Shown here piece after piece: positions 12,199 through 25,109 of a DNA stretch of 64,000 nucleotides. The notes below the pieces were generated by a model. The model ran no database searches, was not told where the DNA came from, and saw only the letters and a list, made by a program, of their open reading frames with translations. Numbering within the stretch: the first letter of the stretch is position 1; every line of letters begins with the position of its first letter. Where the stretch lies: contig JAQZBR010000003.1 of the NCBI GenBank assembly GCA_029237775.1, positions 24,214 to 88,213 on the forward strand. Direction: 5' to 3'. Position numbers and translations under genes: made by a program. This DNA is from Bacteroidota bacterium. Its GTDB lineage: Bacteria; Bacteroidota; Bacteroidia; 2-12-FULL-35-15.

Positions 12199-13137
12199 TT
12201 ACTCTTTTTCGGTGATCTTTTTTATAAGGTCAGGCAGCATTTTTAATGCAGCTACTTCCTTCATCTTTCCTCGTGCTTCACCGGCCGGTGATCCGAAATA
12301 TGTTTTTCCCGGTGCAATGTCTTCACCCAGTCCGGCCTGCGCCAGCAACACCGAGCCTTTTCCAAGAGTAACATCACTGCGTACACCTGATTGTCCCCAT
12401 AATGTAACCCCATCTTCAATTTTTACCACACCGGCAACACCAACATGCGAAGCGAAAAGACACATTTTACCAACCTGGGTATCATGGCCTATCTGAACGT
12501 GATTATCGATCTTGGTTCCTGCCCCTATACGTGTTTCTCCGGATACTCCTTTATCGATAGTACACAATGCACCGATCTCCACATCGTCTTCAATTACAAC
12601 ACTTCCGCAGGAGATCATCTTGTCGAAATATTCAGGCCGTTTTTTATAGTAAAACGCATCAGCGCCTATAACAGTGCCGGCATGTATAACAACATTATTT
12701 CCAATATGGCAATCGTTATAAACCACCACGTGTGGGTGCAGGACGCAATTATCACCGACAGTTACATTGTTTCCAAGATAAACACCCGGCATTATTACCG
12801 TATTCAATCCGATTACAGCAGTATCGCTCACGTGCTTTCCGGAATAATTCACAGGATAAAAATGGCGGACAAGCTTATTGTAATCGCGAAAAGGATCATC
12901 GGAGATCAATAATGCTTTACCTTCCGGGCATTCTACCCGCTTATTGATAAGTATGGTAGTTGCTTTGGATTGTAAGGCCTTGTCGTAATATTTTGGATGA
13001 TCAACAAAAACAATATCTCCCGGTTCCACCATGTGGATTTCATTCATGCCAGTGATCACGTGATCAGGATTTCCTTCTGTTTCACACTGTATAAGTGCAG
13101 CTATGTTTTTTAGAGTATGCGCTGAAGGTAATTTCAT
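12199..13137 (-). CDS. LpxD-like N-acyltransferase (second copy)
   Basis: Hexapeptide repeats; IGALCTIDKG and KIDNHVQIGHD motifs; start taken at ATG 13137. Confidence 0.88.
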   Translation of the reverse strand: MKLPSAHTLKNIAALIQCETEGNPDHVITGMNEIHMVEPGDIVFVDHPKYYDKALQSKATTILINKRVECPEGKALLISDDPFRDYNKLVRHFYPVNYSGKHVSDTAVIGLNTVIMPGVYLGNNVTVGDNCVLHPHVVVYNDCHIGNNVVIHAGTVIGADAFYYKKRPEYFDKMISCGSVVIEDDVEIGALCTIDKGVSGETRIGAGTKIDNHVQIGHDTQVGKMCLFASHVGVAGVVKIEDGVTLWGQSGVRSDVTLGKGSVLLAQAGLGEDIAPGKTYFGSPAGEARGKMKEVAALKMLPDLIKKITEKE

Positions 13138-13238
13138 CTGTAAAAAGTAAAGGTTCTTGGTTCTCAAATATAACAATTTATTCTGTTTGTTGTGTAATGC
13201 AATCCCGCTCTGTACAGGGTTTTAGTGTTTGGAAGTTC

Positions 13239-13255
13239 AGGTATGGTTTTTTTAT
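13239..13255 (+). promoter_or_regulatory. GGYRY-N5-TT box (sigma54-like)
   Basis: AGGTATGGTTTTTTTAT; second G is 25 nt before ATG 13266. Confidence 0.45.
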
Positions 13256-13265
13256 TTCATCTTAT

Positions 13266-13937
13266 ATGAAAACAATAGATAAAAAGAAACAACGCGAGAA
13301 GGGCAAGAAAAAATTCCTTCATTACTTCAAGAAAGGTTATCCTGATCAGAAATATTACGCATGGGAGCGGGGATACAAGTGGGAAGCCCACTTGGCATGG
13401 GAGGAGCAATTAAATAAGAAAGAATTTAAAAGGCTGCTGGAGGAAAAGAACTACAGGGAAATTGCAAACCGTGCAGTTAAGATCGAAACAAAGACCAATT
13501 TGCTTTTTTCATTTGAGAAGATGGCTCTTCGTGACGGTGTGAAATCTGAAGCAGGCGCAAAAGCTTTCGCAGAAGGATTATACAATTACGTGTATGGAAA
13601 AGGGGATATGAAAAAGCGATTCGAAGCTTTTACAGAAGTTCTTGCTAATCTCCCTCGAAAGCAAACCCGCGTATTAACATGGCCTTTACAGACGGTCTTC
13701 GGGTTTATTGCAGATCCCGAACATCAGATCTTCATGAAGCCGAAGGTGACTAAAACTGCTGCAGAAAAATATGGCTATGAATTAAATTATACTTCAAGGC
13801 CAAATTGGGAGACCTATCAGAATTTAATAAATTTTGCGGAGCAGATTCATAAGGATACAAAGGAGTTGAATCCAAAGGACATGATCGATCTACAGTCTTT
13901 TATTTGGGTGATGGGTTCGGATGAATATCCTGACTAG
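13266..13937 (+). CDS. Hypothetical cytoplasmic protein
   Basis: 223-aa ORF from ATG 13266 with protein-like composition (WERGYKW, TWPLQT, DMIDLQSFIWV). Confidence 0.8.
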   Translation: MKTIDKKKQREKGKKKFLHYFKKGYPDQKYYAWERGYKWEAHLAWEEQLNKKEFKRLLEEKNYREIANRAVKIETKTNLLFSFEKMALRDGVKSEAGAKAFAEGLYNYVYGKGDMKKRFEAFTEVLANLPRKQTRVLTWPLQTVFGFIADPEHQIFMKPKVTKTAAEKYGYELNYTSRPNWETYQNLINFAEQIHKDTKELNPKDMIDLQSFIWVMGSDEYPD

Positions 13938-13993
13938 TGGAAAATTAAATTCAATTCCGAACGTACATCAAAACTTGAATCTGAAATTTCAAA

Positions 13994-14257
13994 TCATTTT
14001 TTCTTATACTTTATACTAAAGATAAGATTCAGGATGTTTATGATGAGGGAAAAAACATTCGTTCCTATAATTGCCCAATCATCTTTTATGATTCCATACC
14101 AGATCCATAAGCATAATCCGCTGAAAAGAATAAAAAGCATTGGCAACGAAATATCATCCGCCTTTTTTTCTTTGATGATCTTTATAAGTTGAGGCAGCAT
14201 GGAGACAGAGGTGCAAACACCAGCTGCAATTCCTATGATTGTGGGATTAATGGACAT
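13994..14257 (-). CDS. SemiSWEET / PQ-loop transporter
   Basis: 87 aa, three TMs; MLPQLIK PQ motif, DIS and LWIWYG. Confidence 0.92.
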   Translation of the reverse strand: MSINPTIIGIAAGVCTSVSMLPQLIKIIKEKKADDISLPMLFILFSGLCLWIWYGIIKDDWAIIGTNVFSLIINILNLIFSIKYKKK

Positions 14258-14267
14258 ATCTCGTGTG

Positions 14268-14284
14268 TTAAAAGAATCGTACCA
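14268..14284 (-). promoter_or_regulatory. GGYRY-N5-TT box (sigma54-like)
   Basis: Minus strand TGGTACGATTCTTTTAA; second G is 25 nt before ATG 14257. Confidence 0.5.
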
Positions 14285-14344
14285 CCGTAATCTTTTGCTT
14301 GACCGTCATCGTCAACTAAGTTGTTGAATGATAGTAAAATTATT

Positions 14345-14455
14345 CTTGCGAAGCAGCGCGTAAGGCCTGAAAGCGTACGGTGCCGTGTAGCCTTGCGGGA
14401 AGCGAGTATGCTTTCTTGAATTTTTGTTTCTTTTGTTTCAAGACAAAAGAAAAGA
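14345..14455. repeat. Probable dispersed non-coding repeat element
   Basis: GC-richer block ending in the hairpin TTTCTTTTGT-TTCAAG-ACAAAAGAAA (14427-14452). Resembles, from memory, Bacteroidota intergenic elements; single copy in this window. Confidence 0.45.
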
Positions 14456-14479
14456 ATCCTGAATAAATTTCCCAATTGA

Positions 14480-14496
14480 TGGCACATAAATTTCAT
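14480..14496 (+). promoter_or_regulatory. GGYRY-N5-TT box with a canonical TGGCAC -24 element
   Basis: TGGCACATAAATTTCAT. Confidence 0.55.
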
Positions 14497-14506
14497 GGAT
14501 ATCCGC

Positions 14507-14596
14507 AAGAGATATTCATACAGCCATATCGCCAGAGATGTGATACGGGCAAGGAAATACAAATCTCAAAAAGACTTCCTTTAGAAGTCTTTTTTT
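14507..14596 (+). ncRNA. Candidate ~90-nt small RNA or attenuated leader
   Basis: Lies between the sigma54-like box and an intrinsic terminator; internal hairpin CCATATCGC/GTGATACGG. Confidence 0.3.
14568..14596 (+). terminator. Intrinsic terminator
   Basis: AAAAAGACTTC-CTTTA-GAAGTCTTTTTTT. Confidence 0.75.
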
Positions 14597-14618
14597 ATGC
14601 AAAATAATTTATCGGATC

Positions 14619-15428
14619 ATGCTTGACAGTTTTTTAAAAACATTTAACCTTTCCCTGAATACACTTATTGCTTATATGCCTTCACTGATTGGCGGTTTAG
14701 CTTGCTTTGTGATTTCCATCTTTATTGCTAATTTTTTGTCAAAGATCTCAAACGGCTTTGCTCTTAAAAAGACAAAAGACGGCTTGATTGCGAGCTTTAT
14801 CGGTAAGATAGTCTGGTCGGTTATCTTTATTCTTGGGACTGTTTTAGCCTTGGGCATTCTCGGCCTCGGCACTATCTCCAATAAAATCCTTGCAGGTGCA
14901 GGAATAACCACGTTTATTGTCGGGTTTGCTTTAAAGGATATCGGGGAAAATTTTCTTTCGGGATTAATACTTGCTTTCAGCCGCCCGTATAAAGTCGGGA
15001 CTCTCATAGAATGCGAAGATGTGAAAGGTGTTGTAAGGAACATGACCCTTCGTCAGACGACCATTGAAGCCGATGACGGGAAGATTATTCTCGTTCCTAA
15101 TTCTATGATCATTAAAAATCCGTTGCTGCGTTATAAAACCGCGGATAATCTGCGTCAGGAATTTCATCTCAATATTGATCAGAAAAATTCAAGAGAGATA
15201 ATTGATCTGATAAAGACTACTGTGCATTCGTTTGACAATGTATTGCAAACACCGGAAAAGCCGGTTAAGGTAGTCGCAGGTTCTCTTAGCGGTGATAAGA
15301 TAAATGTGCAGGTGATATTTTGGTTCGACACAAAAAAATTTAAGGGCTCGTTCTCGGAAACTCGATCTGAGATCATGCTTACCGTAATTGAAAAACTCCG
15401 TGAAAGAGAATATACTTTCAGCGGCTAG
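14619..15428 (+). CDS. Small-conductance mechanosensitive channel (MscS family)
   Basis: GFALKDIGENFLSGL, RPYKVG and VPNS motifs. Confidence 0.92.
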   Translation: MLDSFLKTFNLSLNTLIAYMPSLIGGLACFVISIFIANFLSKISNGFALKKTKDGLIASFIGKIVWSVIFILGTVLALGILGLGTISNKILAGAGITTFIVGFALKDIGENFLSGLILAFSRPYKVGTLIECEDVKGVVRNMTLRQTTIEADDGKIILVPNSMIIKNPLLRYKTADNLRQEFHLNIDQKNSREIIDLIKTTVHSFDNVLQTPEKPVKVVAGSLSGDKINVQVIFWFDTKKFKGSFSETRSEIMLTVIEKLREREYTFSG

Positions 15429-15445
15429 TGGCATATAATTTACAT
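15429..15445 (+). promoter_or_regulatory. GGYRY-N5-TT box (sigma54-like)
   Basis: TGGCATATAATTTACAT upstream of the 15519-wrbA unit. Confidence 0.5.
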
Positions 15446-15518
15446 TCTTTATGATACCTTCTTTAAGCACGGTTAAAGGGTTTTAAAGAATTAATACTAA
15501 CAATTAATCTTATCGAAA

Positions 15519-15851
15519 ATGAAAGATCCGAAAAACACAAATGAAAATAATGATTCTGTAAATAAAGATCAGGATCCTGATAAAATAGATATGGTACCGG
15601 GTACTAGCGCTGATGTAACAAAAGAAGACCTGGAGGCACTTGGTCCGAGAGACCTGAGCATGGACATGGGTGATGATGAAGATCTGAAGCATCGTGTGCA
15701 TCCTGTGGATTTTGCAGGAAAAGACCTGGATGTTCCGGGATCTGAGCTTGATGATGCACAAGAGGCAAGAGGTTCCGAAGATGAAGAAAACAATCCATAC
15801 AGTATCGGTGGAGATAACCATGACAAGCTGGAGGAAACAAATAACATTTAG
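15519..15851 (+). CDS. Highly acidic, probably disordered small protein
   Basis: 110 aa, D/E/N-rich (DLDVPGSELDDAQEARGSEDEENNPYSIGGD); 9 nt upstream of wrbA. Confidence 0.8.
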   Translation: MKDPKNTNENNDSVNKDQDPDKIDMVPGTSADVTKEDLEALGPRDLSMDMGDDEDLKHRVHPVDFAGKDLDVPGSELDDAQEARGSEDEENNPYSIGGDNHDKLEETNNI

Positions 15852-15860
15852 ATTTAATTT

Positions 15861-16475
15861 ATGGAAAAGATAAAGCTTGCAGTGATCTATTATAGTTCAA
15901 CCGGAACAAACTATCAGCTTTCTAAGTGGGCTGCAGAAAGCGCAGAAAAGGAAGGCGCGGAAGTGAAGATATTAAAAGTGAAGGAGTTGGCACCGCAGGA
16001 AGCGATAGATTCTAATCCGTTGTGGAAGGCGAATATTGAAAAGACCAAGGATATTGCTGAGGTGAAGGTGGAGGATCTTGACTGGGCGGATGCGATTATT
16101 TTTTCGATGCCTACAAGATATGGTAACCTGCCTGCTCAGATGAAACAGTTCCTGGACTCAACCGGAGGCTTGTGGCAAAAAGGTAAGCTTACCAACAAGG
16201 TTGTCAGTGGAATGTCGAGTGCAATGAACTCCCATGGTGGACAGGAAATGACAATTCTTGCTTTATATACAACCATGTATCACTGGGGTGCAATTGTAGT
16301 AGCACCGGGTTACACTGACCCTGTGCTTTTTGCAGCAGGCGGTAACCCATATGGGACAAGCGTATCAGTTGATGCACAAGGCAAAATGAAGGAGGATGTG
16401 AAAGATGCAGTGATGCATCAGGCAAAGAGAGTTGTTAGTGTTGCAGCTATGCTAAAAAAAGGAAAATCTATATAG
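15861..16475 (+). CDS. wrbA: NAD(P)H:quinone oxidoreductase, WrbA type
   Basis: IYYSSTG, PTRYGN, HGGQE and GGNPYG flavodoxin-like motifs. Confidence 0.93.
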   Translation: MEKIKLAVIYYSSTGTNYQLSKWAAESAEKEGAEVKILKVKELAPQEAIDSNPLWKANIEKTKDIAEVKVEDLDWADAIIFSMPTRYGNLPAQMKQFLDSTGGLWQKGKLTNKVVSGMSSAMNSHGGQEMTILALYTTMYHWGAIVVAPGYTDPVLFAAGGNPYGTSVSVDAQGKMKEDVKDAVMHQAKRVVSVAAMLKKGKSI

Positions 16476-16528
16476 GCAAATGTCAGCAGTGACAATAGGC
16501 GATACTATTATGCTCTGGTACGAATAAT

Positions 16529-16556
16529 AAAAAAAGCCGCAAACGCGGCTTTTTTT
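16529..16556. terminator. Bidirectional intrinsic terminator
   Basis: AAAAAAAGCCGC-AAAC-GCGGCTTTTTTT between convergent genes. Confidence 0.9.
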
Positions 16557-16788
16557 ATTGAGCAGTATCCGTAACCGGATCTTTATCTTTTATTCCATCC
16601 GTCCTTGTATTGTCGGGAGGTGTGTCGATTGTCGAGTCAGCCGTAGCACTCGCAGCATGATTTTCCACTTTCGGATTATTACATCCTGCAAACAGGGCGA
16701 CAAATCCAATGATCATGATTGCCCACGACAACATCATTTTTAAAAGCAGGGTTTCCATAGTTTTGTTTTTTGGTTTCACTTCTTTCAT
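16555..16788 (-). CDS. Small putative lipoprotein
   Basis: Hydrophobic stretch ending in the lipobox FAGC, then a polar D/T-rich tail. Confidence 0.65.
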   Translation of the reverse strand: MKEVKPKNKTMETLLLKMMLSWAIMIIGFVALFAGCNNPKVENHAASATADSTIDTPPDNTRTDGIKDKDPVTDTAQ

Positions 16789-16809
16789 GGCTTATAAGGT
16801 ATTATACTT

Positions 16810-16826
16810 AGTCAAAGCTTATACCA
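16810..16826 (-). promoter_or_regulatory. GGYRY-N5-TT box (sigma54-like)
   Basis: Minus strand TGGTATAAGCTTTGACT. Confidence 0.55.
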
Positions 16827-16868
16827 CCCGAAAACTGAAATTTAAGTGGGGAAGCATTACCGCGAAAT

Positions 16869-17837
16869 TTACTTTTTTGACTTTTTCGTTTTGCTCTTTT
16901 TCGCTTTTGATTTTTTTGCGGCAGGTTTGTCTTTAAGTTTAGTTTTCCCTTTAACAATCACTGTTGTATGTCTTTCAGCTTTAATATCTTGTTTAGAAGG
17001 AAGGAATTCCCTTTCTTTCAATGCATAACCGTTACGTTTAGAAAGTATATGAACCCTTAGGTTTTCAATACACAATGGCACATCGGGCGCTGCGTATGCA
17101 ATATTTGTATGGCCTACATCCTTCCCATCAATTATTACCACCATTCCGGATCCTTTGCATTCAGCTCTGTTTCCTTTTTTAATTACAAGGGCGGTGTCTT
17201 CTCCGAGTCCGATCCCAATACAAGCCGGGTTCATTACTATTGATTGTGCAAGTCTTCCAAATCTTCCGCGCTTAATAAAATGGGTGTCAATAATACAGCC
17301 GTGTATAAACCCGAGTCCGGAGGAGAACTTTACTGTCTGACTCAGCATTGCTTCGTTGTTTTCTCCTTCATACAACATTAAGCCTGACATGGCCATCGCT
17401 CCCGCACTGGTGCCCGCTACAATAAAATCGGAATCATGCACGTATTTATGTTTTACGGCATCTATCACATCTGAACTCCCTAAAATTGTCGCAAGCCTGA
17501 ATTGATCTCCGCCACTGAAAAGTACAGAGTGCGCTTTATGGATGCGTTCTACATATTTAGGATAATCAGCCTCTTCATGATTGCTCATATTTATAAAGCC
17601 AACCTCTTTGAAGCCGATTTTCTTAAAGGCTTCCTTATACATCTCATTGACTTCTTTTGGAACTGAAGAAGCGGTGGTAATGATCTCAATTTTCTTTTTA
17701 TTTCTTTTTTTGTCTTTAGGCAGTAATTCGGATAGGATCTCAAACTCTTCATATTCTCTGTTCCTGGTCAAGGCTCTTCCGTCACCTTTATCTTCTGCTC
17801 CCCCTATCAGGATCAATGTTCCTTTTGGCACTTTCAT
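16869..17837 (-). CDS. cphB: Cyanophycinase (peptidase S51) with a Lys-rich C-terminal tail
   Basis: IGGAEDK, FSGGDQ, GTSAGA (Ser), IDTHFIKRGRFGRL (His) and GLGEDT (Glu); ATGA overlap with the upstream cphA paralog. Confidence 0.95.
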   Translation of the reverse strand: MKVPKGTLILIGGAEDKGDGRALTRNREYEEFEILSELLPKDKKRNKKKIEIITTASSVPKEVNEMYKEAFKKIGFKEVGFINMSNHEEADYPKYVERIHKAHSVLFSGGDQFRLATILGSSDVIDAVKHKYVHDSDFIVAGTSAGAMAMSGLMLYEGENNEAMLSQTVKFSSGLGFIHGCIIDTHFIKRGRFGRLAQSIVMNPACIGIGLGEDTALVIKKGNRAECKGSGMVVIIDGKDVGHTNIAYAAPDVPLCIENLRVHILSKRNGYALKEREFLPSKQDIKAERHTTVIVKGKTKLKDKPAAKKSKAKKSKTKKSKK

Positions 17838-20407
17838 ATATTAATAGTTTTATTTTGTTCCTTCTCCTGTTTCTCAGTTACAAAGCTTATGATTTCATGC
17901 ACTTTGTCGGCACAGGCAAGAATGACTGAACCTCTTTTTGCAGCAGCTATTGCATGCTCTATAGCCTTTTTTTCATCTGCGATTATCTCTACCTGCATCG
18001 AAGGACATTCTTCTTTTATACCTTCCATTAAAAGATTGGAATGCTCCTCAGCAGGACGGCCTCGTAAATCTTTATCGTAACGGATTATTATTTTGTCGAA
18101 CATCTGTGCGGCATATTTGCCAAGACAGCGTATGTCATCATCTCTACGGTCGCCTGTGGCCGCAATGATTCCTACCTTTTCAGAGGCTTCGGTTTTATCA
18201 AGGAATTTCTTTAATTCCATATAGCCGCTTTTATTGTGTGCATAGTCAATGATGAAATCGAAATCATTGAACTTAAATACATTTAATCTGCCGGGAGTTT
18301 TCTCAGGCGATGGGACGAATGACAACAATCCGTTTCGTACCGATTCCGGATCAAACTTGTTAATGATCATCACCGCAAGCGATGCTGCAAGAATATTCTG
18401 GATCATAAATTCAGCTTTACCGTCAAAGCTTAGAGGAATATTGGCGATTTTGTCGATTCGTGTTTTCCACTCACCGTTGTAAATTGTAAGATACTCCTCC
18501 TCAATAACTGCAGCAACTCCGCCATTCTCACAATGTGTCCTCACGCGTTCATTATTTTCATTCAGACTGAAGAGTGCGATCTTGCAGTTAGTGAATTGTT
18601 GCATATTATAGACGAGATCATCATCAGCATTCAGGATGGCATATCCGTCCTTCTTTGTAGCTTTCGCCACCACAAGCTTAACCTTAGAGAGTTCTTCAAG
18701 CGTTTCTATGTCTTTTGTTCCGAGGTGATCATCGGAAACATTTGTAACTATACTGATATCGCACTGGTCAAATCCCAATCCCGATCTTATAATTCCTCCC
18801 CTGGCACATTCAAGCACTGCCATGTCGATAGTTGGGTCGAAAAGCACGGTCTGCGCGCTAACGGATCCGGTGCAATCACCTTCTTCAATTAAATGATTAT
18901 TGATATAGATACCTTCTGTGGTAGTATATCCGACAGTATGGCCAGCCTCTTTAAGGATGTGTGCCGTCAGTCGTGTGGTAGTTGTCTTACCGTTAGTGCC
19001 TGTTACAGCAATTAACGGAATGCGCGTGTCATTATCAGGAAAAAGCATATCGATTATCGGCTTTGCGACATTGCGCGGAATCCCGATAGTGGGATTGGTA
19101 TGCATTCTGATTCCCGGCCCTGCATTCACTTCAATGATAGCTCCGGTCTTTTTCGTTAAAGGCTGGCTTACATCAGTTGTTAATATATCTATTCCACAAA
19201 TGTTAAGGTTGAAAAGCTTAGCGATATGTTCAGCCATAAAAACATTTTCGGGATGAACAATGTCTGTTACGTCTGTAGATGTCCCGCCTGCGCTGATGTT
19301 CGCTATTTCCTTTAAATATAGATTTTGGCCTTCATGCAAAACACTTTCAAGGGTAAGGGATTTGGAGGCAAGTATTTTCTTTGTTACATCATCCGCTTTG
19401 ATTAGTGCGAGCGGATGTTCCTGAGAGGAGCCGCGGTCAGGATGCTGGTTTTCTTTTTCAATAAGCTCAGCGATAGTAGACTTGCCATCACCTGTAACAT
19501 TGGCCGGAGTGCGTTTAGCGACTGCAACAAGTTTATAGTTGATCACCAGAAAACGATGATCGTCTCCTTTTATAAATTCTTCCACTATTACGGCACGTGA
19601 GATCTTTTGAGCGACCTCGAGGCCATGGATAGCCTTTTCGATCGAATTTATTTCCGTTGTTACGCCACGCCCGTGATTTCCATCAAGAGGTTTTGTAACA
19701 AGAGGGAATTGCATGTTCTTTATTTCTTCAAGTAATTCTTCTTTATCATAAACTATGACGCCTTTCGGCACGGGAAGCTTTGAATCTTCCAACATTTTCT
19801 TGGTTTCCTCTTTATCTCCGGCAAGTTCAATGCCGATACCACTGGTAGAGTCAACAAGTGCCGTCCTCATTTTCTTTTGCTTGCGGCCATATCCAAGCGT
19901 TATCAGAGAACCATTATCAAATCGTTTGTACGGAATATTTCGGCTGATCGCTTCGTTCAAAATGAATGAAGTGGTGGCTCCCATGTCTTCATCACTTCTT
20001 ATGTCCTCAAGCTCTTCAATGAATTTATGTATATCCGGAGATTGTTTCTGAACAAGGGATTCCACGATCTTCACGGCCGAGGCCGCTGCAAACTTGCCTG
20101 CATCTTCAAATTCGTAAGAAAATATGATGCGAAAAATTTCGGGTTGTCGTGTTGTTAATACCGCGCCATACTCCGCGTGCATTCCTGCTTTTCTTTGAAG
20201 TTCGAGAGCAATGGTTTTTACTGCTTCGGCAATTTCATTCGCTGTGGATAATGAAGGGTGTGCATCAGGGAATATCCGTAGCACTTCAGACTGTAATTCC
20301 GAAGCTTCTGCATTCCCGACATTTAATTTAAATACAATAAGTTTCGAATGCTGGTCAGCCCATTGATTGGGTCCGCGCATTACTTTCAATTCTATGATCT
20401 CAAACAT
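17834..20407 (-). CDS. cphA: Cyanophycin synthetase paralog with a degenerate N domain
   Basis: RGPNxW start; ATP-grasp motifs KPLDGNHGRG, DHRFLV and EVNAGPGIRMH; Mur-ligase motifs TGTNGKTTT, ECARGG, DHLG and DYAHN; no Cx19HxxEH. Confidence 0.9.
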   Translation of the reverse strand: MFEIIELKVMRGPNQWADQHSKLIVFKLNVGNAEASELQSEVLRIFPDAHPSLSTANEIAEAVKTIALELQRKAGMHAEYGAVLTTRQPEIFRIIFSYEFEDAGKFAAASAVKIVESLVQKQSPDIHKFIEELEDIRSDEDMGATTSFILNEAISRNIPYKRFDNGSLITLGYGRKQKKMRTALVDSTSGIGIELAGDKEETKKMLEDSKLPVPKGVIVYDKEELLEEIKNMQFPLVTKPLDGNHGRGVTTEINSIEKAIHGLEVAQKISRAVIVEEFIKGDDHRFLVINYKLVAVAKRTPANVTGDGKSTIAELIEKENQHPDRGSSQEHPLALIKADDVTKKILASKSLTLESVLHEGQNLYLKEIANISAGGTSTDVTDIVHPENVFMAEHIAKLFNLNICGIDILTTDVSQPLTKKTGAIIEVNAGPGIRMHTNPTIGIPRNVAKPIIDMLFPDNDTRIPLIAVTGTNGKTTTTRLTAHILKEAGHTVGYTTTEGIYINNHLIEEGDCTGSVSAQTVLFDPTIDMAVLECARGGIIRSGLGFDQCDISIVTNVSDDHLGTKDIETLEELSKVKLVVAKATKKDGYAILNADDDLVYNMQQFTNCKIALFSLNENNERVRTHCENGGVAAVIEEEYLTIYNGEWKTRIDKIANIPLSFDGKAEFMIQNILAASLAVMIINKFDPESVRNGLLSFVPSPEKTPGRLNVFKFNDFDFIIDYAHNKSGYMELKKFLDKTEASEKVGIIAATGDRRDDDIRCLGKYAAQMFDKIIIRYDKDLRGRPAEEHSNLLMEGIKEECPSMQVEIIADEKKAIEHAIAAAKRGSVILACADKVHEIISFVTEKQEKEQNKTINI

Positions 20408-20430
20408 AAATAACCCTCTTATTCGTTAGG

Positions 20431-20461
20431 AAAAAACGGGAGCAAATTTTGTTTGCTCCCG
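20431..20461 (-). terminator. Intrinsic terminator between the ferritin-like gene and the cphA paralog
   Basis: 10-bp stem CGGGAGCAAA/TTTGCTCCCG followed by six U on the minus strand. Confidence 0.75.
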
Positions 20462-20469
20462 GGAAAGAT

Positions 20470-21060
20470 TTACTTTTTCTTTGCAGCTTTTTTAGCCTTT
20501 TTCGGTGATTCTTCATCCTCCTCTTCAGAGGCTGCCTGCATATTAATGGTGGCTTCTGCCACTTCTGTTAGTTTTTCATCTGCAGCTTTCTCCTGATCTA
20601 ATATTTCTCCAAGCAACGTTGCAGCATCATTCAAACCCAAAGTTTTAGCAAATTGGCGAAGTGTTCCATAGCTGGCAATTTCATAATGCTCAACCTTCTG
20701 TCCCGCAGAAATGATTCCTGCGTCACGCATCGCTCCTGCATCTGCTTCTTTCATGATTTCTTCAGCTTCTTTTACCAGTCCGGCCATTGCTTCACATTTT
20801 TTTGCGGTTGCTTTTTTACCGATCACTTTGAATACCTGCTCAAGCTTTTCGATCTGGCCTTCCGTTTCTTCCAGGTGATTCTCCAGGGCTGTGATCAGAT
20901 CTTCATTTGTAGCTTTCTTGGCCATTTTAGGAAGAGCTTTTGTCAATGCTTTTTCAGCCCAATAGATATCTTTTAATTCGTCTTCGAATAATTTCATGAG
21001 TTTTGATTCTTCGATGCCATATTCTGCAGACGCTTTTTTGCTTGTTGATTTTGATTTCAT
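20470..21060 (-). CDS. YciE/YciF (DUF892) ferritin-like stress protein with Lys-rich termini
   Basis: LKDIYWAEK, HLEETEGQ, KCEAMAGL and QKVEHYEIASYGTL motifs. Confidence 0.93.
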   Translation of the reverse strand: MKSKSTSKKASAEYGIEESKLMKLFEDELKDIYWAEKALTKALPKMAKKATNEDLITALENHLEETEGQIEKLEQVFKVIGKKATAKKCEAMAGLVKEAEEIMKEADAGAMRDAGIISAGQKVEHYEIASYGTLRQFAKTLGLNDAATLLGEILDQEKAADEKLTEVAEATINMQAASEEEDEESPKKAKKAAKKK

Positions 21061-21091
21061 ATGAATGTTTTTAGGGTTTGTGCTTAGCTAT

Positions 21092-21108
21092 ATTAAAAGA
21101 ATATGCCT
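21092..21108 (-). promoter_or_regulatory. GGYRY-N5-TT box (sigma54-like)
   Basis: Minus strand AGGCATATTCTTTTAAT. Confidence 0.55.
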
Positions 21109-21230
21109 TTTCATTAAATGACAGCTAATTTCCGAACTGTGAAAAAAAATACACAAATAGCCTGTTTCACTCTTAATTTAATTAGCATGTTTCTTGACAG
21201 AAGTTTACTTACTTTTAGATCTTAAAATTT

Positions 21231-22178
21231 ATGACTAAGGAAATGAAAAGGCATGCGATAGCAATACACGGAGGAGCCGGTACCATCACAAGAAACATAT
21301 TAACAAACGATCTGGAGCTGGCCTACAGGGGAGCTTTACAGGAAGCTATTGAAATGGGAGACAGAATTCTTGCAAAGGGAGGAAACGCCCTCGAAGCTGT
21401 CACCGCCAGCGTAGCGCTAATGGAGGAAAATGAATTATTTAATGCAGGAAAAGGTTCAGTGTTTAATCATGAGGGGAAACACGAGATGGATGCAGCCGTT
21501 ATGGATGGTAAAACCTTAATGGCAGGTGCTGTTTCCGGTATTCGTAATTTGAAGCACCCTGTTTTATTGGCTAAAGCGATTATGGAGAAGTCAGACCATG
21601 TTCTATTGGCTAATTCAGGAGCTGCAGACTTCGCCAGGGAAATGAATCTTGAATTTGCTCCGGATGATTATTTTTTCGTTCAGCATCGTTACGAACAATT
21701 TTTGGCTGCCAGGGCTGAAGGGCATGTTGTTCTGGATCACACTCAGCCCGGAGACGAGAAGAAATTCGGAACCGTAGGTGCTGTAGCTTTGGATGTTCAT
21801 GGTAATATTGCTGCCGCGACCTCAACGGGTGGTATGACCAATAAAAAATGGGGGAGGGTAGGTGATTCACCTATCATTGGAGCCGGAACATACGCTAACA
21901 ATAATACCTGCGCTATTTCCTGTACCGGACACGGGGAATACTTTATCAGATCAGTAGTAGCGTACGATATTTCATGTCTTATGGAATACAAAGGACTCAG
22001 CCTCAAAGAAGCCTGTGACCTTGTAGTGATGAAAAAGCTTGTTGAAATTGGCGGAGAAGGCGGATTGATAGCGATAGATACTATGGGTAATATTGAAATG
22101 CCTTTTAATTCTGAAGGAATGTATCGCGCGGTGAAGCATTCAGAACAGGATTATTTTATCGGTATCTATAAGGACTAA
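21231..22178 (+). CDS. iaaA: Isoaspartyl peptidase/L-asparaginase (Ntn hydrolase)
   Basis: IHGGAG, FNAGKG, EMDA, G-TVGAVA Thr nucleophile, TSTGG, GRVGDSP and TGHGE motifs. Confidence 0.95.
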   Translation: MTKEMKRHAIAIHGGAGTITRNILTNDLELAYRGALQEAIEMGDRILAKGGNALEAVTASVALMEENELFNAGKGSVFNHEGKHEMDAAVMDGKTLMAGAVSGIRNLKHPVLLAKAIMEKSDHVLLANSGAADFAREMNLEFAPDDYFFVQHRYEQFLAARAEGHVVLDHTQPGDEKKFGTVGAVALDVHGNIAAATSTGGMTNKKWGRVGDSPIIGAGTYANNNTCAISCTGHGEYFIRSVVAYDISCLMEYKGLSLKEACDLVVMKKLVEIGGEGGLIAIDTMGNIEMPFNSEGMYRAVKHSEQDYFIGIYKD

Positions 22179-22198
22179 GCCTCAACTATATTCAAAAT

Positions 22199-22233
22199 AA
22201 AAACGCCTCTTCGGTTTTCGAAGAGGCGTTTTT
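22199..22233. terminator. Bidirectional intrinsic terminator
   Basis: AAAAACGCCTCTTCG-GTTTT-CGAAGAGGCGTTTTT. Confidence 0.9.
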
Positions 22234-22249
22234 GTATGTTTAGTATTTA

Positions 22250-24898
22250 TCAGGATACTTTTGATAAAGGGAAAAGCTGGTTTCCGGATTTCTCATTTTC
22301 TTCTTTTAATTGCTTAACAAATGCAATACTTTTCTTTACATCTTCTGTACAAAGGAAAATAAAGCTTCCGTTAACGGCATTCTGCATAGATGTTAATAAT
22401 GCTTCCTGTTCGTTTGGAACCACAATAACAGGAATTGAACTGTTCACACTGTTGATTCCTTCCATAAGCAAAGCGGTAAGCTCATCGCAGTTTCTTCCAC
22501 GCAGGTCATCATCGTGACGGATGATAATATTCGTAAACATTTGCGCGGCATAGTAGCCGATATTGCGGATATCTTCATTTCTTCTATCGCCAACTGCAGT
22601 GATAATGCCTGTTTTTACCGGTGCATTGATGCTGTCCACAAACTTCTTCAATTCAACAAAACCTCCTGCATTGTGAGCGTAATCAACCATTACATCAAAA
22701 TTGCTGAATTTGAAATTATTCATGCGGCCAGGAGTATGCTCCGGTGAAGGAACAAATGAAAGCAAGGCGGCACGGATATCTTCCAGTTTGAAATTGCTGG
22801 CCATTCCTGCAAGCGTTGCTGCCAGAATGTTTTTAATCATTGCAGTTGCTTTACCCTGGAACGACAATGGTACATTCTCAATTCTGCAAACTCTTGTCTG
22901 CCATTCACCTTTGGTGATTGTCAGGTATCCTTTTTCGATTGTAGCTGCCATTCCACCGCGTTTGCAGTGACGAATGATGCGCTCATTATTTTCTTCAATG
23001 CTGAAAAGTGCTATGTTACAGTCAATGTCATATCTCAGATCATAAACCAGATCATCGTCTGCATTTAAAATGCTGAAACCATCATCAAATGTGCTTCTTG
23101 CCACAACCGCTTTCACTTTTGCCATCTCTTCAACATCGTCAATGCCATTTAAGCCAAGATGATCTTCGGAAATGTTGGTGATGATGCTCACATTGCAATT
23201 GTCGAAACCTAATCCTGCTCTTAAAATTCCACCACGAGCACATTCAAGGACTGCAAAATCAACAGTAGGATCTGTTAGAATCGCTTCTGCACTAACAGGG
23301 CCAGTGCAATCGCCATAGTGAACTGCGTGACCGTTAATATAAATTCCATCAGTTGTTGTAAATCCTGTTCTGAATCCCGCCTGTTTAGCCATGTGAGCAA
23401 CAAGCCTTGTTGTTGTTGTTTTTCCATTGGTTCCTGTTACGGCAACAATCGGGATCCGTGAAGGCTTTCCTTCCGGATATAACATACTCATCACAGGTTC
23501 TGCAACGTTTCTTGCTAAGCCTTTCGCAGGATTAAGGTGCATACGGAATCCCGGACATGCATTCACTTCAACTATCCCTCCAATTTCGTTTGTGATAGGT
23601 TGGTCTATATCCTTTGCCACAACATCGATCCCACAAATATCAAGGTTCATTATACGTGCGATCCTCTCGGCCATTAAAACATTGGCAGGGTGGACAAGAT
23701 CAGTTACATCGCGGGATGTTCCACCTGTGCTGATATTCGCTGTGTCTTTTAATAAAAGGATCTGTCCCATCGGAAGAATAGTGCTGAGAGTAAATCCCTT
23801 ATCATTTAAAATATTATTCGTGGTCTCATCCACAACGATCTTTGTCATTACTTTCTCATGTCCGTCTCCCCGGTTCGGATCATTGTTGGTCTGCTCTATA
23901 AGTTCAGCTATAGTGGAGAGGCCATCTCCCATAACCATTGCGGGTGTGCGTTTTGCCACTGCAACCAGTTTGTAATTGATAACAAGGAAGCGATAATCAT
24001 AACCTTCTATAAACCGTTCAACGATCACACTTTCGGAAATGGTTTTTGCTATGTGAAACGCTGCGATTGCCTGTTCAATATTTCTGATATTGGTCGTAAT
24101 ACCTCTACCGTGGTTGCCGTCAATAGGTTTAATCACAACAGGGAAGCTCATTTCCTGAAGTACATCGCGAAGTTCTTCTTCATCGCTGATCACTTCTCCG
24201 GTAGGTACCGGGATATATGCTTTTTTAAGAATTTTTTTTGTTTCGTCTTTATCACCCGCCAGATCAACTCCGATTGAAGCTGTATCAGAGGTCATAGAGG
24301 CACGGATCTTTTTCTGGTGAACACCCTGTCCGAAAAGGATCATTGATCCGCTGTTAAGTCGTTTGTATGGAATATTCCGTTTTTTAGCTTCGTTGATGAT
24401 AGACTGCGTGCTCGGGCCAAATGCTTCACGCTTATGAATTCTTCTTAAGCGGTCAAGGTCTGCATCCAGATCGTATGGTGTGCCATTAGCTAATGCGTCA
24501 CAGATTCTGATCGCTGCTTCAGCTGCGTATACCCCGGCCTTTTCAATCTCGTAGGAAAAGATCACATGATAGATCCCCGATTGTCCTGCCGAACGTGTGC
24601 GGCCGTAGCCCACTTCCATACCTGCAAGGGTTTGAATTTCCAGTGCGATATGTTCAACAACATGTCCCATCCATGTTCCGCTTTTGATCCGTTCGAAGAA
24701 TCCTCCTTCGTGGCCTTCGGAGCATCTGTGTTCAAACATGCTTGGAAACATTTCTTTGAGACGTTCACCAAAACCGGGGATTTTATTTGTAGGGAGCTGT
24801 TCGTACTTGCCGATATCCAGCTTCATGATAATCACATGTTGGCGGTAATTGGACCAATAGTTGGGTCCACGCATAATACTGAGGTCGAGAATATTCAT
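22250..24898 (-). CDS. cphA: Cyanophycin synthetase CphA1, canonical
   Basis: RGPNYWS; intact C-x19-HVVEH and YGRTR; GPST, KPIDGNHGRG, ANISTGG, TGTNGKTTT and DYAHN motifs; start taken at ATG 24898. Confidence 0.96.
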   Translation of the reverse strand: MNILDLSIMRGPNYWSNYRQHVIIMKLDIGKYEQLPTNKIPGFGERLKEMFPSMFEHRCSEGHEGGFFERIKSGTWMGHVVEHIALEIQTLAGMEVGYGRTRSAGQSGIYHVIFSYEIEKAGVYAAEAAIRICDALANGTPYDLDADLDRLRRIHKREAFGPSTQSIINEAKKRNIPYKRLNSGSMILFGQGVHQKKIRASMTSDTASIGVDLAGDKDETKKILKKAYIPVPTGEVISDEEELRDVLQEMSFPVVIKPIDGNHGRGITTNIRNIEQAIAAFHIAKTISESVIVERFIEGYDYRFLVINYKLVAVAKRTPAMVMGDGLSTIAELIEQTNNDPNRGDGHEKVMTKIVVDETTNNILNDKGFTLSTILPMGQILLLKDTANISTGGTSRDVTDLVHPANVLMAERIARIMNLDICGIDVVAKDIDQPITNEIGGIVEVNACPGFRMHLNPAKGLARNVAEPVMSMLYPEGKPSRIPIVAVTGTNGKTTTTRLVAHMAKQAGFRTGFTTTDGIYINGHAVHYGDCTGPVSAEAILTDPTVDFAVLECARGGILRAGLGFDNCNVSIITNISEDHLGLNGIDDVEEMAKVKAVVARSTFDDGFSILNADDDLVYDLRYDIDCNIALFSIEENNERIIRHCKRGGMAATIEKGYLTITKGEWQTRVCRIENVPLSFQGKATAMIKNILAATLAGMASNFKLEDIRAALLSFVPSPEHTPGRMNNFKFSNFDVMVDYAHNAGGFVELKKFVDSINAPVKTGIITAVGDRRNEDIRNIGYYAAQMFTNIIIRHDDDLRGRNCDELTALLMEGINSVNSSIPVIVVPNEQEALLTSMQNAVNGSFIFLCTEDVKKSIAFVKQLKEENEKSGNQLFPLSKVS

Positions 24899-24925
24899 AA
24901 GGGCATTTTTAGTTTGACCTGTTTT

Positions 24926-24942
24926 CAAGAAAAACTATGCCA
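24926..24942 (-). promoter_or_regulatory. GGYRY-N5-TT box (sigma54-like)
   Basis: Minus strand TGGCATAGTTTTTCTTG. Confidence 0.55.
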
Positions 24943-25058
24943 TAAACAAACAGCCTGAGAATCAAGGCGGAGGACTGGAATTCAATAAAAAAGTGGGGAA
25001 AATATACCACCCTAACCGGATGGATAACGCGGGAAAACCCCTATTTATGGGGCAAAAC

Positions 25059-25090
25059 AAAAACGCTCCCGGATTACGGAAGCGTCTTCT
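25059..25090 (-). terminator. Terminator downstream of efp
   Basis: Imperfect stem ACGCTCCCG/CGGAAGCGT with a U-tract on the minus strand. Confidence 0.6.
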
Positions 25091-25109
25091 TTGCTAAATA
25101 AGGATGTTA

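Follow-up and report, generated by a model that had tools for sequence, protein, structure and literature searches.

Introduction

Why does one bacterium keep two full-length cyanophycin synthetases close to each other? The question is raised by a stretch of 64,000 nucleotides (the window) from contig JAQZBR010000003.1 (positions 24,214 to 88,213) of the Bacteroidota assembly GCA_029237775.1, here called G000. Five genes lie within positions 16869–24898 of the window: cphB, which encodes a cyanophycinase, a second synthetase gene (cphA′), a gene of the DUF892 family, an iaaA-like gene and a canonical cphA. A preliminary description of this DNA had suggested a division of labour or a heteromeric synthetase under stress control. 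We find that the canonical enzyme (P0005, type II) carries the motif of a primer-making site and that the second enzyme (P0002, type III) lacks it. Both copies are complete and keep the catalytic residues that we checked, and the two genes are inherited together. The asymmetry escaped the preliminary description, and with it a division of labour becomes a specific idea that can be tested.

The motif, Cx19HxxEH, marks a cryptic zinc endo-cyanophycinase site formed by C59, H79, E82 and H83 in SuCphA1 from Synechocystis sp. UTEX2470, and this site cleaves nascent cyanophycin to primers, which makes the enzyme primer-independent (PMC9262961). The same source reports the motif as complete in 83 % of the nr70 CphA1 sequences, with about 17 % motif-less. 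Site mutants of SuCphA1 turn primer-dependent, and TmCphA1 from Tatumella morbirosei, which has no motif, is primer-dependent by nature (PMC9262961). Its primer-free activity was restored in trans by a motif-bearing enzyme whose G and M sites had been inactivated, or by the N domain of such an enzyme on its own. Yield was limited by primer supply in these data, and remnant strands or other small molecules were suggested as primers in vivo (PMC9262961).

Clusters of cphA1, cphB and iaaA are already known, as are motif-less CphA1s. CphA1 is encoded in 86 Bacteroidota RefSeq genomes, and cphA1, cyanophycinase and iaaA are clustered in 49 of the 153 genomes that have all three (Sharon and Schmeing 2023). 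The main text of that survey makes no mention of copy number, motif status or DUF892; for individual genomes, motif status or copy number may already be recorded in the supplements of Sharon 2022 and 2023.

Results

All five reading frames were recovered where they had been described, by open reading frame (ORF) positions and by family profiles (Table 1). The second synthetase gene is full length, and its stop codon overlaps the cphB start in an ATGA at 17834–17837, as checked in the sequence; cphB is translationally coupled to cphA′. The iaaA-like product scores 393.4 bits against the beta-aspartyl-peptidase equivalog NF007589, below the cut-off of 567, and is therefore named IaaA-like only, despite its strong Asparaginase_2 match.

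Both synthetases match PF18921, ATP-grasp, PF08245 and PF02875 and thus have the three-domain N, G and M layout. They are 52 % identical (454 of 873 positions). The N domain of P0002 is approximately 25 residues shorter than that of P0005. The Pfam model of this domain aligns to P0005 over profile positions 2–114 (160.7 bits), and to P0002 only over the second half of the profile, positions 53–115 (42.7 bits). The complete Cx19HxxEH motif is found in P0005 (CSEGHEGGFFERIKSGTWMGHVVEH). P0002 has none of the four motif residues: the region around C59 is deleted, and H79, E82 and H83 are replaced by E, K and T. The catalytic residues of the other two domains, listed from PMC9262961 and PMC9427784 (Miyakawa et al. 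2022), are present in both enzymes (H267, R309, N394, G456 and R458 in the G domain; K499, T500, T522, E558, D585 and H586 in the M domain; Te/Su numbering). Both also retain the P-loop of ATP-grasp (KP.DGNHGRG) and that of Mur (GTNGKTTT), as had been described. Residue 215 is Glu in P0002 and Asp in the other three paralogues of the genome. The AlphaFold2 model of P0002 (mean pLDDT 92.6) superposes over its whole length on TeCphA1 from Trichodesmium (7wae_A; TM 0.94, 878 columns) and on SuCphA1 with a TM of 0.91; with CphA2 the TM is 0.56–0.58. P0002 is thus a complete CphA1 in which the primer-making site alone has been lost. Because the motif is absent, and in view of the published biochemistry of the motif, P0002 is predicted to be primer-dependent and unable to start chains efficiently alone. 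P0005 is predicted to be primer-independent.

A word-index search returned 7959 relatives, of which the best 120 were analysed. These and the four paralogues of the genome gave 123 synthetase-length sequences, 76 motif-bearing and 47 motif-less. Full-length sequences among the best 150 representatives from an exhaustive search were added, and a tree of 223 full-length sequences was built (FastTree, LG+gamma, midpoint-rooted). P0002 falls in a motif-less clade of 48 members (support 0.999) and P0005 in a motif-bearing clade of 75 (0.873), and the node that joins the two has a support of 0.973. When 21 genome sequences were added, the clades grew to 52 (1.0) and 82 members (0.874), and both lie within a 137-member clade (0.999) that excludes the other two paralogues of the genome. 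The residues follow the clades. C59, H79 and E82 are each found in 0 of the 48 motif-less and in all 75 motif-bearing members, and all four motif residues are kept in 75/75 of the P0005 clade. R309, N394, G456, R458, K499, T500, E558 and H586 are present throughout both clades (48/48 and 75/75); D585 is found in 47/48 and 75/75, and H267 in 43/48 (Gln in the other five) and 75/75. A comparison of the 48 motif-less with 133 motif-bearing sequences over the whole alignment gave four clade-fixed differences, all conservative (S/T, A/T, A/G, T/A) and all in the G domain (P0002 145–334), with none in the M domain.

Divergence was compared between G000 and four orthologues. The synonymous divergence (pS) of cphA′ is saturated at 0.79–0.84, and its non-synonymous divergence (dN) is 0.14–0.18, close to the value of approximately 0.13 for the canonical cphA. 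The mean identity of cphA′ to the G000 copy is 0.53 in the N domain, 0.87 in the G domain and 0.77 in the M domain; the corresponding values for the canonical gene are 0.81, 0.88 and 0.79. Relaxed constraint in cphA′ is thus confined to the N domain, and P0002 is the product of an old gene maintained by selection.

The family to which the window belongs consists of one genus with 68 genomes (67 without G053). Type III genes, at least 76 % identical to P0002, occur in five of them (G000, G004, G017, G046 and G051). In all five, a type II gene (53–55 % identical to P0002) lies on the same contig, approximately 4.4 kb away. Type II occurs in 20 genomes of the genus (19 without G053), and 15 of these 20 have no type III. 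Loci were searched with single proteins, which gave three loci on genome contigs and two on metagenome contigs. The order cphB–cphA′–DUF892–iaaA–cphA is identical in G004, in G017 and on the metagenome-assembled contigs L043 and L045, which possibly come from genomes already counted. Because the same five genes recur in the same order, their clustering is not chance.

The association extends beyond close relatives. On L056, a distant metagenome contig, the motif-less enzyme represents the second main branch of the clade and shares 55 % identity with P0002. The gene for it starts 57 bp past a DUF892 gene, and the order is response regulator, DUF892, motif-less cphA, MscS, motif-bearing type II cphA, cphB and a convergent iaaA, with 9.3 kb from DUF892 to iaaA. 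In G151, a genome of another family, approximately 6.6 kb separate a motif-bearing cphA–cphB pair from a truncated representative of the motif-less clade, which has its own cphB and also lacks the M-domain P-loop. Seven motif-less proteins among the best 120 relatives come from contigs exactly equal in size to the contig of a motif-bearing protein; for the deeper motif-less subclade, the context consists of L056 and of such coincidences of contig size. The pair has been co-inherited over long times, and the region is a conserved cyanophycin build-and-break module.

The genome holds more synthetases than the two in the window that had been described. G000 has four cphA genes above the equivalog cut-off, all full length, four cphB, two iaaA-like and two DUF892 genes (E≤1e-5), and the cphA and cphB paralogues are spread over four contigs. 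Type I (P0006) is the copy present in most congeners. Type IV (P0007) lies on contig C5, in a locus with DUF892 on the plus strand followed by cphB, the type IV cphA and iaaA on the minus strand. In P0007, LNGHQGKC replaces the G-domain P-loop LDGNHGRG, and Gln stands at the position of the catalytic H267. A motif-less type IV and a motif-bearing type I gene also share a genome in G099 and G193. The class-wide survey scored two candidates per genome, and copy numbers are not taken from it.

Both DUF892 genes of G000 stand in motif-less cphA loci. For 68 distinct cphA ORFs, each 700 aa or longer, we recorded whether a DUF892 gene lies no more than 1.5 kb away; the rows are not independent of each other. 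DUF892 was found beside 9 of 12 motif-less cphA genes with an M-domain P-loop, and two of the three misses have nearly no flanks. It was found beside 5 of 49 motif-bearing genes, four of the five being partners inside the block, and beside 1 of the 45 motif-bearing genes that have no motif-less neighbour (G220). The adjacency of DUF892 and cphA occurs in at least five lineages (type III in the window's genus, L056, type IV in that genus, G193 and G085); in G085, only 21 bp separate DUF892 from the CphA2-like gene downstream of it. Fourteen contigs with a motif-less cphA are exactly equal in size to the contig of a close DUF892 homologue. The family is not exclusive to such loci: 7 of the 45 DUF892 matches in the genus lie beside cphA (8 of 48 with G053), and none is found in the 20 kb around the G151 pair. 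Motif-less cphA genes have a conserved companion in DUF892. As a separate observation, the motif-bearing cphA of G220 reads KPIDGNQGKG and has Gln at H267, with DUF892 208 bp upstream and cphB downstream.

Discussion

We infer, with moderate confidence, that the motif-bearing enzyme seeds primers and that the motif-less enzyme only elongates. P0005 would start chains and supply primers in trans. P0002 would act in elongation alone and leave its own product uncut, and CphB and the IaaA-like enzyme would return the polymer to Asp and Arg.

Several observations weigh against this division of labour and against an obligate dependence of P0002 on its partner. TmCphA1 functions in vivo without a partner (PMC9262961). 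G165 and G391, which belong to one genus, have a single cphA of 879 aa that is motif-less and keeps the G and M motifs (L066, L074), and of the five two-copy genomes examined outside the window's genus, two (G390, G324) have two motif-bearing copies. G000 itself holds two motif-bearing and two motif-less genes, and the motif-less gene on C5 has no adjoining motif-bearing gene. The C5 arrangement means that adjacency is not needed for a trans effect, and any motif-bearing enzyme of the genome could serve. The window synthetases are in separate transcription units, convergent around iaaA. The tree sample is biased towards relatives of P0002, and in the extended tree the sister node of the two clades has a support of only 0.26. 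A general rule that a motif-less cphA never stands alone in Bacteroidia was also considered, and it is ruled out by G165 and G391.

The main rival is that the two enzymes are independent, differently regulated isoenzymes. They would make the same polymer under different conditions with no mutual dependence, and the cell would tolerate the missing N site, with remnant polymer acting as primer; cphA′–cphB might, for example, be switched on with DUF892 in starvation, desiccation or osmotic stress. The separate transcription units with terminator-like hairpins between them fit this explanation, as do the four cphA and four cphB paralogues over four contigs, the genomes with a single motif-less cphA, the proposal of remnant strands as primers in vivo (PMC9262961) and the insertion shared with DUF892, MscS and the FMN reductase. 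It leaves unexplained why every type III gene found with enough flank, L056 included, lies within approximately 6.6 kb of a motif-bearing type II gene, and we identified no regulator or promoter. We regard independent isoenzymes as possible but on balance doubtful. A heteromeric synthetase would consist of mixed dimers or tetramers, with one protomer lending its N site to the G and M sites of its partner; it seems improbable to us. In its favour, CphA1s form oligomers, SuCphA1 heterodimers engineered to carry the N site and the G and M sites on different protomers are active (PMC9262961), and the window paralogues share 52 % identity. The two genes are, however, not co-transcribed, 15 of the 20 type II genomes of the genus lack type III, and the published rescue in trans works with free proteins and requires no complex.

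Two further explanations concern P0002 alone. Its polymer could differ, either in the side-chain amino acid or in a chain length set by the active sites, and incorporation of Lys is known to vary among CphA enzymes (PMC8050183). All checked G and M catalytic residues are nevertheless conserved, and the clade-fixed differences number just four, each of them conservative and located in the G domain, which is evidence against a new substrate; we consider a different polymer quite unlikely, and more so than a heteromer. That P0002 is a recent, decaying or inactive duplicate is scarcely credible. Its shortened and fast-evolving N domain is what decay might look like, but the reading frame is full length in five species with saturated pS and a dN of 0.14–0.18, the G and M domains match those of the canonical enzyme in conservation, the clade is deep (48–52 members) and the predicted fold is confident (pLDDT 92.6). 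As far as the sequence can tell, a decaying duplicate is refuted, and on this point the check supports the preliminary description.

We return to the division of labour between a seeding and an elongating enzyme and compare the pair with known systems. P0005 resembles SuCphA1 and TeCphA1 in architecture, in the Cx19HxxEH motif and in the G and M residues (897.5 bits to SuCphA1, 7lg5). It differs in that it comes from Bacteroidota, is one of four paralogues and is fixed beside a motif-less partner. TmCphA1 and the CphA1 of Acinetobacter baylyi are like P0002 in that they lack the four motif residues and keep the G and M sites, and P0002 should therefore work in the same way. It is not their relative, however: it scores 750.7 bits against SuCphA1, compared with 559.9 for the Tatumella and 549.4 for the Acinetobacter enzyme. 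Unlike in these two, the motif was lost inside a Bacteroidota clade, and P0002 is co-inherited with a motif-bearing neighbour, whereas the Tatumella and Acinetobacter genes presumably stand alone as single copies. P0002 falls in no characterised clade, and the nearest solved structures are cyanobacterial CphA1s with 41 % identity.

The two adjacent full-length cphA genes of Ralstonia wenshanensis p56D2 likewise encode a motif-bearing enzyme of 886 aa and a shorter motif-less one of 855 aa. Each Ralstonia copy deviates at a catalytic residue of the G domain (R458L upstream, H267Q downstream), whereas both window copies are intact; the Gln of the Ralstonia motif-less cphA′ at H267 is shared with P0007. 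All four G000 paralogues fall in a 153-member clade (support 0.98) that excludes this pair, the one betaproteobacterial pair compared, and P0002 therefore belongs to a different clade. The 14.6 kb read around the Ralstonia pair carry no annotated cphB, iaaA or DUF892. Cyanobacterial CphA2 is also a second synthetase beside the main cyanophycin machinery. CphA2 lacks the M-domain P-loop and the Mlid (PMC9427784), and its length is about 630–640 aa. P0002 differs with its 857 aa, its GTNGKTTT, its DH pair and its full M domain, and its model fits TeCphA1 (TM 0.94) far better than CphA2 (7ta5; TM 0.56). It is thus not CphA2-like, in agreement with the preliminary description. A literature search, with subscription papers and supplements outside its scope, found no description of a motif-bearing and motif-less pair in Bacteroidota and no paper linking cyanophycin with DUF892 or YciF; a search of the literature for “CphA3/3′” as names of cyanophycin enzymes also found none.

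More broadly, Bacteroidia may have repeatedly evolved two-enzyme synthesis, with a seeder and an elongation-only CphA1, in which the ferritin-like DUF892 protein, whose gene is nearly always an immediate neighbour of the accessory synthetase gene, would be an unrecognised cyanophycin component, for example a granule-associated or regulatory one. This wider proposal is tentative, and we think it unlikely to hold as a whole. Iron binding and ferroxidase activity are known for YciF of Salmonella only.

The source of primers for primer-dependent synthetases in vivo is still an open question, and a conserved natural pair offers a direct test of it. The pair could also guide the design of production strains, and DUF892, found beside these genes time and again, may lead to a new player. 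Should the two enzymes prove to be independent isoenzymes, the locus would represent an ordinary family of paralogues from an uncultured soil lineage. We regard it as a real, conserved variant of a known system, of moderate interest.

Genomic Context

The coordinates of the block, of its surroundings and of the related loci are collected in Table 1.

Table 1. Genes, hairpins and related loci. Positions are those of the window unless a contig or locus is named.
Feature	Position	Strand	Cx19HxxEH	Remarks
cphB (cyanophycinase)	16869–17837	−		322 aa; TIGR02069 217.1 bits (cut-off 126.6); PF03575 68.3 bits
cphA′ (P0002, type III)	17834–20407	−	absent	857 aa; TIGR02068 1029.3 bits (cut-off 850); five-gene block
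DUF892 (YciE/YciF-type ferritin-like)	20470–21060	−		196 aa; PF05974 198.5 bits (gathering 23.7), profile positions 2–159 of 159
iaaA-like Ntn-hydrolase (isoaspartyl peptidase/asparaginase family)	21231–22178	+		315 aa; PF01112 376.9 bits
Canonical cphA (P0005, type II)	22250–24898	−	present	882 aa from ATG, ORF begins upstream at TTG 24928; TIGR02068 1209.4 bits; five-gene block
GC hairpin with T-run	20437–20461	−		terminator-like; in the 62-bp spacer between DUF892 and cphA′
Bidirectional hairpin	22197–22235	.		strong, terminator-like, 18-bp stem; between convergent iaaA and cphA
Accessory insertion	13177–25109	.		approximately 11.9 kb; between lpxD (12199–13176) and efp (25110 to approximately 25700)
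MscS-type mechanosensitive channel	14619–15428	+		PF00924 65.6 bits
NADPH-dependent FMN reductase	15861–16475	+		PF03358 74.5 bits
Type I locus (cphA P0006 and cphB)	contig C7, 15990–19609 (L001)		present	872 aa; divergent from its own cphB
Type IV locus (cphA P0007)	contig C5:335052–340270 (L004 is most of it)		absent	873 aa; with iaaA, cphB and the second DUF892
Fourth cphB homologue	contig C4:978–1850			stand-alone
Truncated CphA2-like gene (G085)	L068 1276–3531		absent	
Truncated CphA2-like gene (G252)	L075 1465–3621		absent	
Truncated CphA2-like gene (G381)	L076 1498–3138		absent	
Truncated CphA2-like gene (G151)	L061 14482–16830		absent	
N-domain-like ORF (G151)	L061 4725–5186			153 aa
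DUF892–cphA–cphB locus (G220)	L065 1462–4863		present	

The block belongs to an accessory insertion that also contains an ORF of unknown function, the MscS channel and the FMN reductase. The same insertion occupies the same site in G000, G004 and G017. In the congeners G019 and G042, the gap between lpxD and efp is only 96–225 bp, and none of the insertion genes is present there. The FMN reductase adjoins the block in G004 and G017; none was found with the window query in five other congeners. The flanks of the insertion are housekeeping genes (SpoIIE-like phosphatase, lpxD, efp, ABC ATPase, lpxA and lpxC–fabZ). The earlier designation as a stress region therefore does not apply to the flanks, but the insertion with its MscS, FMN reductase and DUF892 genes does have a stress flavour. 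The stress control proposed in the preliminary description is hinted at solely by these three gene neighbours, and co-expression under stress is a guess.

Three transcription units are likely: cphA, iaaA, and DUF892 followed by cphA′–cphB. The hairpin in the spacer between DUF892 and cphA′ may be a terminator or an attenuator. All five orthologous spacers aligned from the genus retain it, with a compensatory change, and it is not evident in L056. A scan for the sigma-70 consensus gave 13 promoter-like sites, compared with a mean of 21 after shuffling. The −7 box of Bacteroidota is TAnnTTTG; in the intergenic regions of the module we found none except one that overlaps the cphA′ start codon. 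No regulator was found in the insertion. Rfam returned two sub-threshold matches, a Thr_leader on the terminator hairpin and a ctRNA, both probably chance. A search of sequencing runs returned no RNA run and two DNA runs from soil metagenomes, with word shares of 0.34 and 0.28.

Truncated cphA paralogues of 546–782 aa, without the N-site motif and the Mur P-loop and thus CphA2-like, occur in other families of Bacteroidia. The truncated copy lies on the contig of a motif-bearing cphA–cphB in G085, G252 and G151, and on a separate contig in G381. In G151, the motif-bearing cphA is preceded at a distance of 28 bp by a stand-alone 153-aa ORF, which is 31 % identical to the N-terminal region of a cphA and may encode a free N-domain-like protein.

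The left end of the insertion (13095–14562) holds a 280-aa ORF without a Pfam match and two small ORFs of 87 and 109 aa on the minus strand. CphB ends in a Lys-rich tail of approximately 30 residues with KxK-type repeats (16869–16960). The N-terminus of the DUF892 protein is also Lys-rich, and its C-terminus is acidic and then Lys-rich (20470–20520 and 21020–21060).

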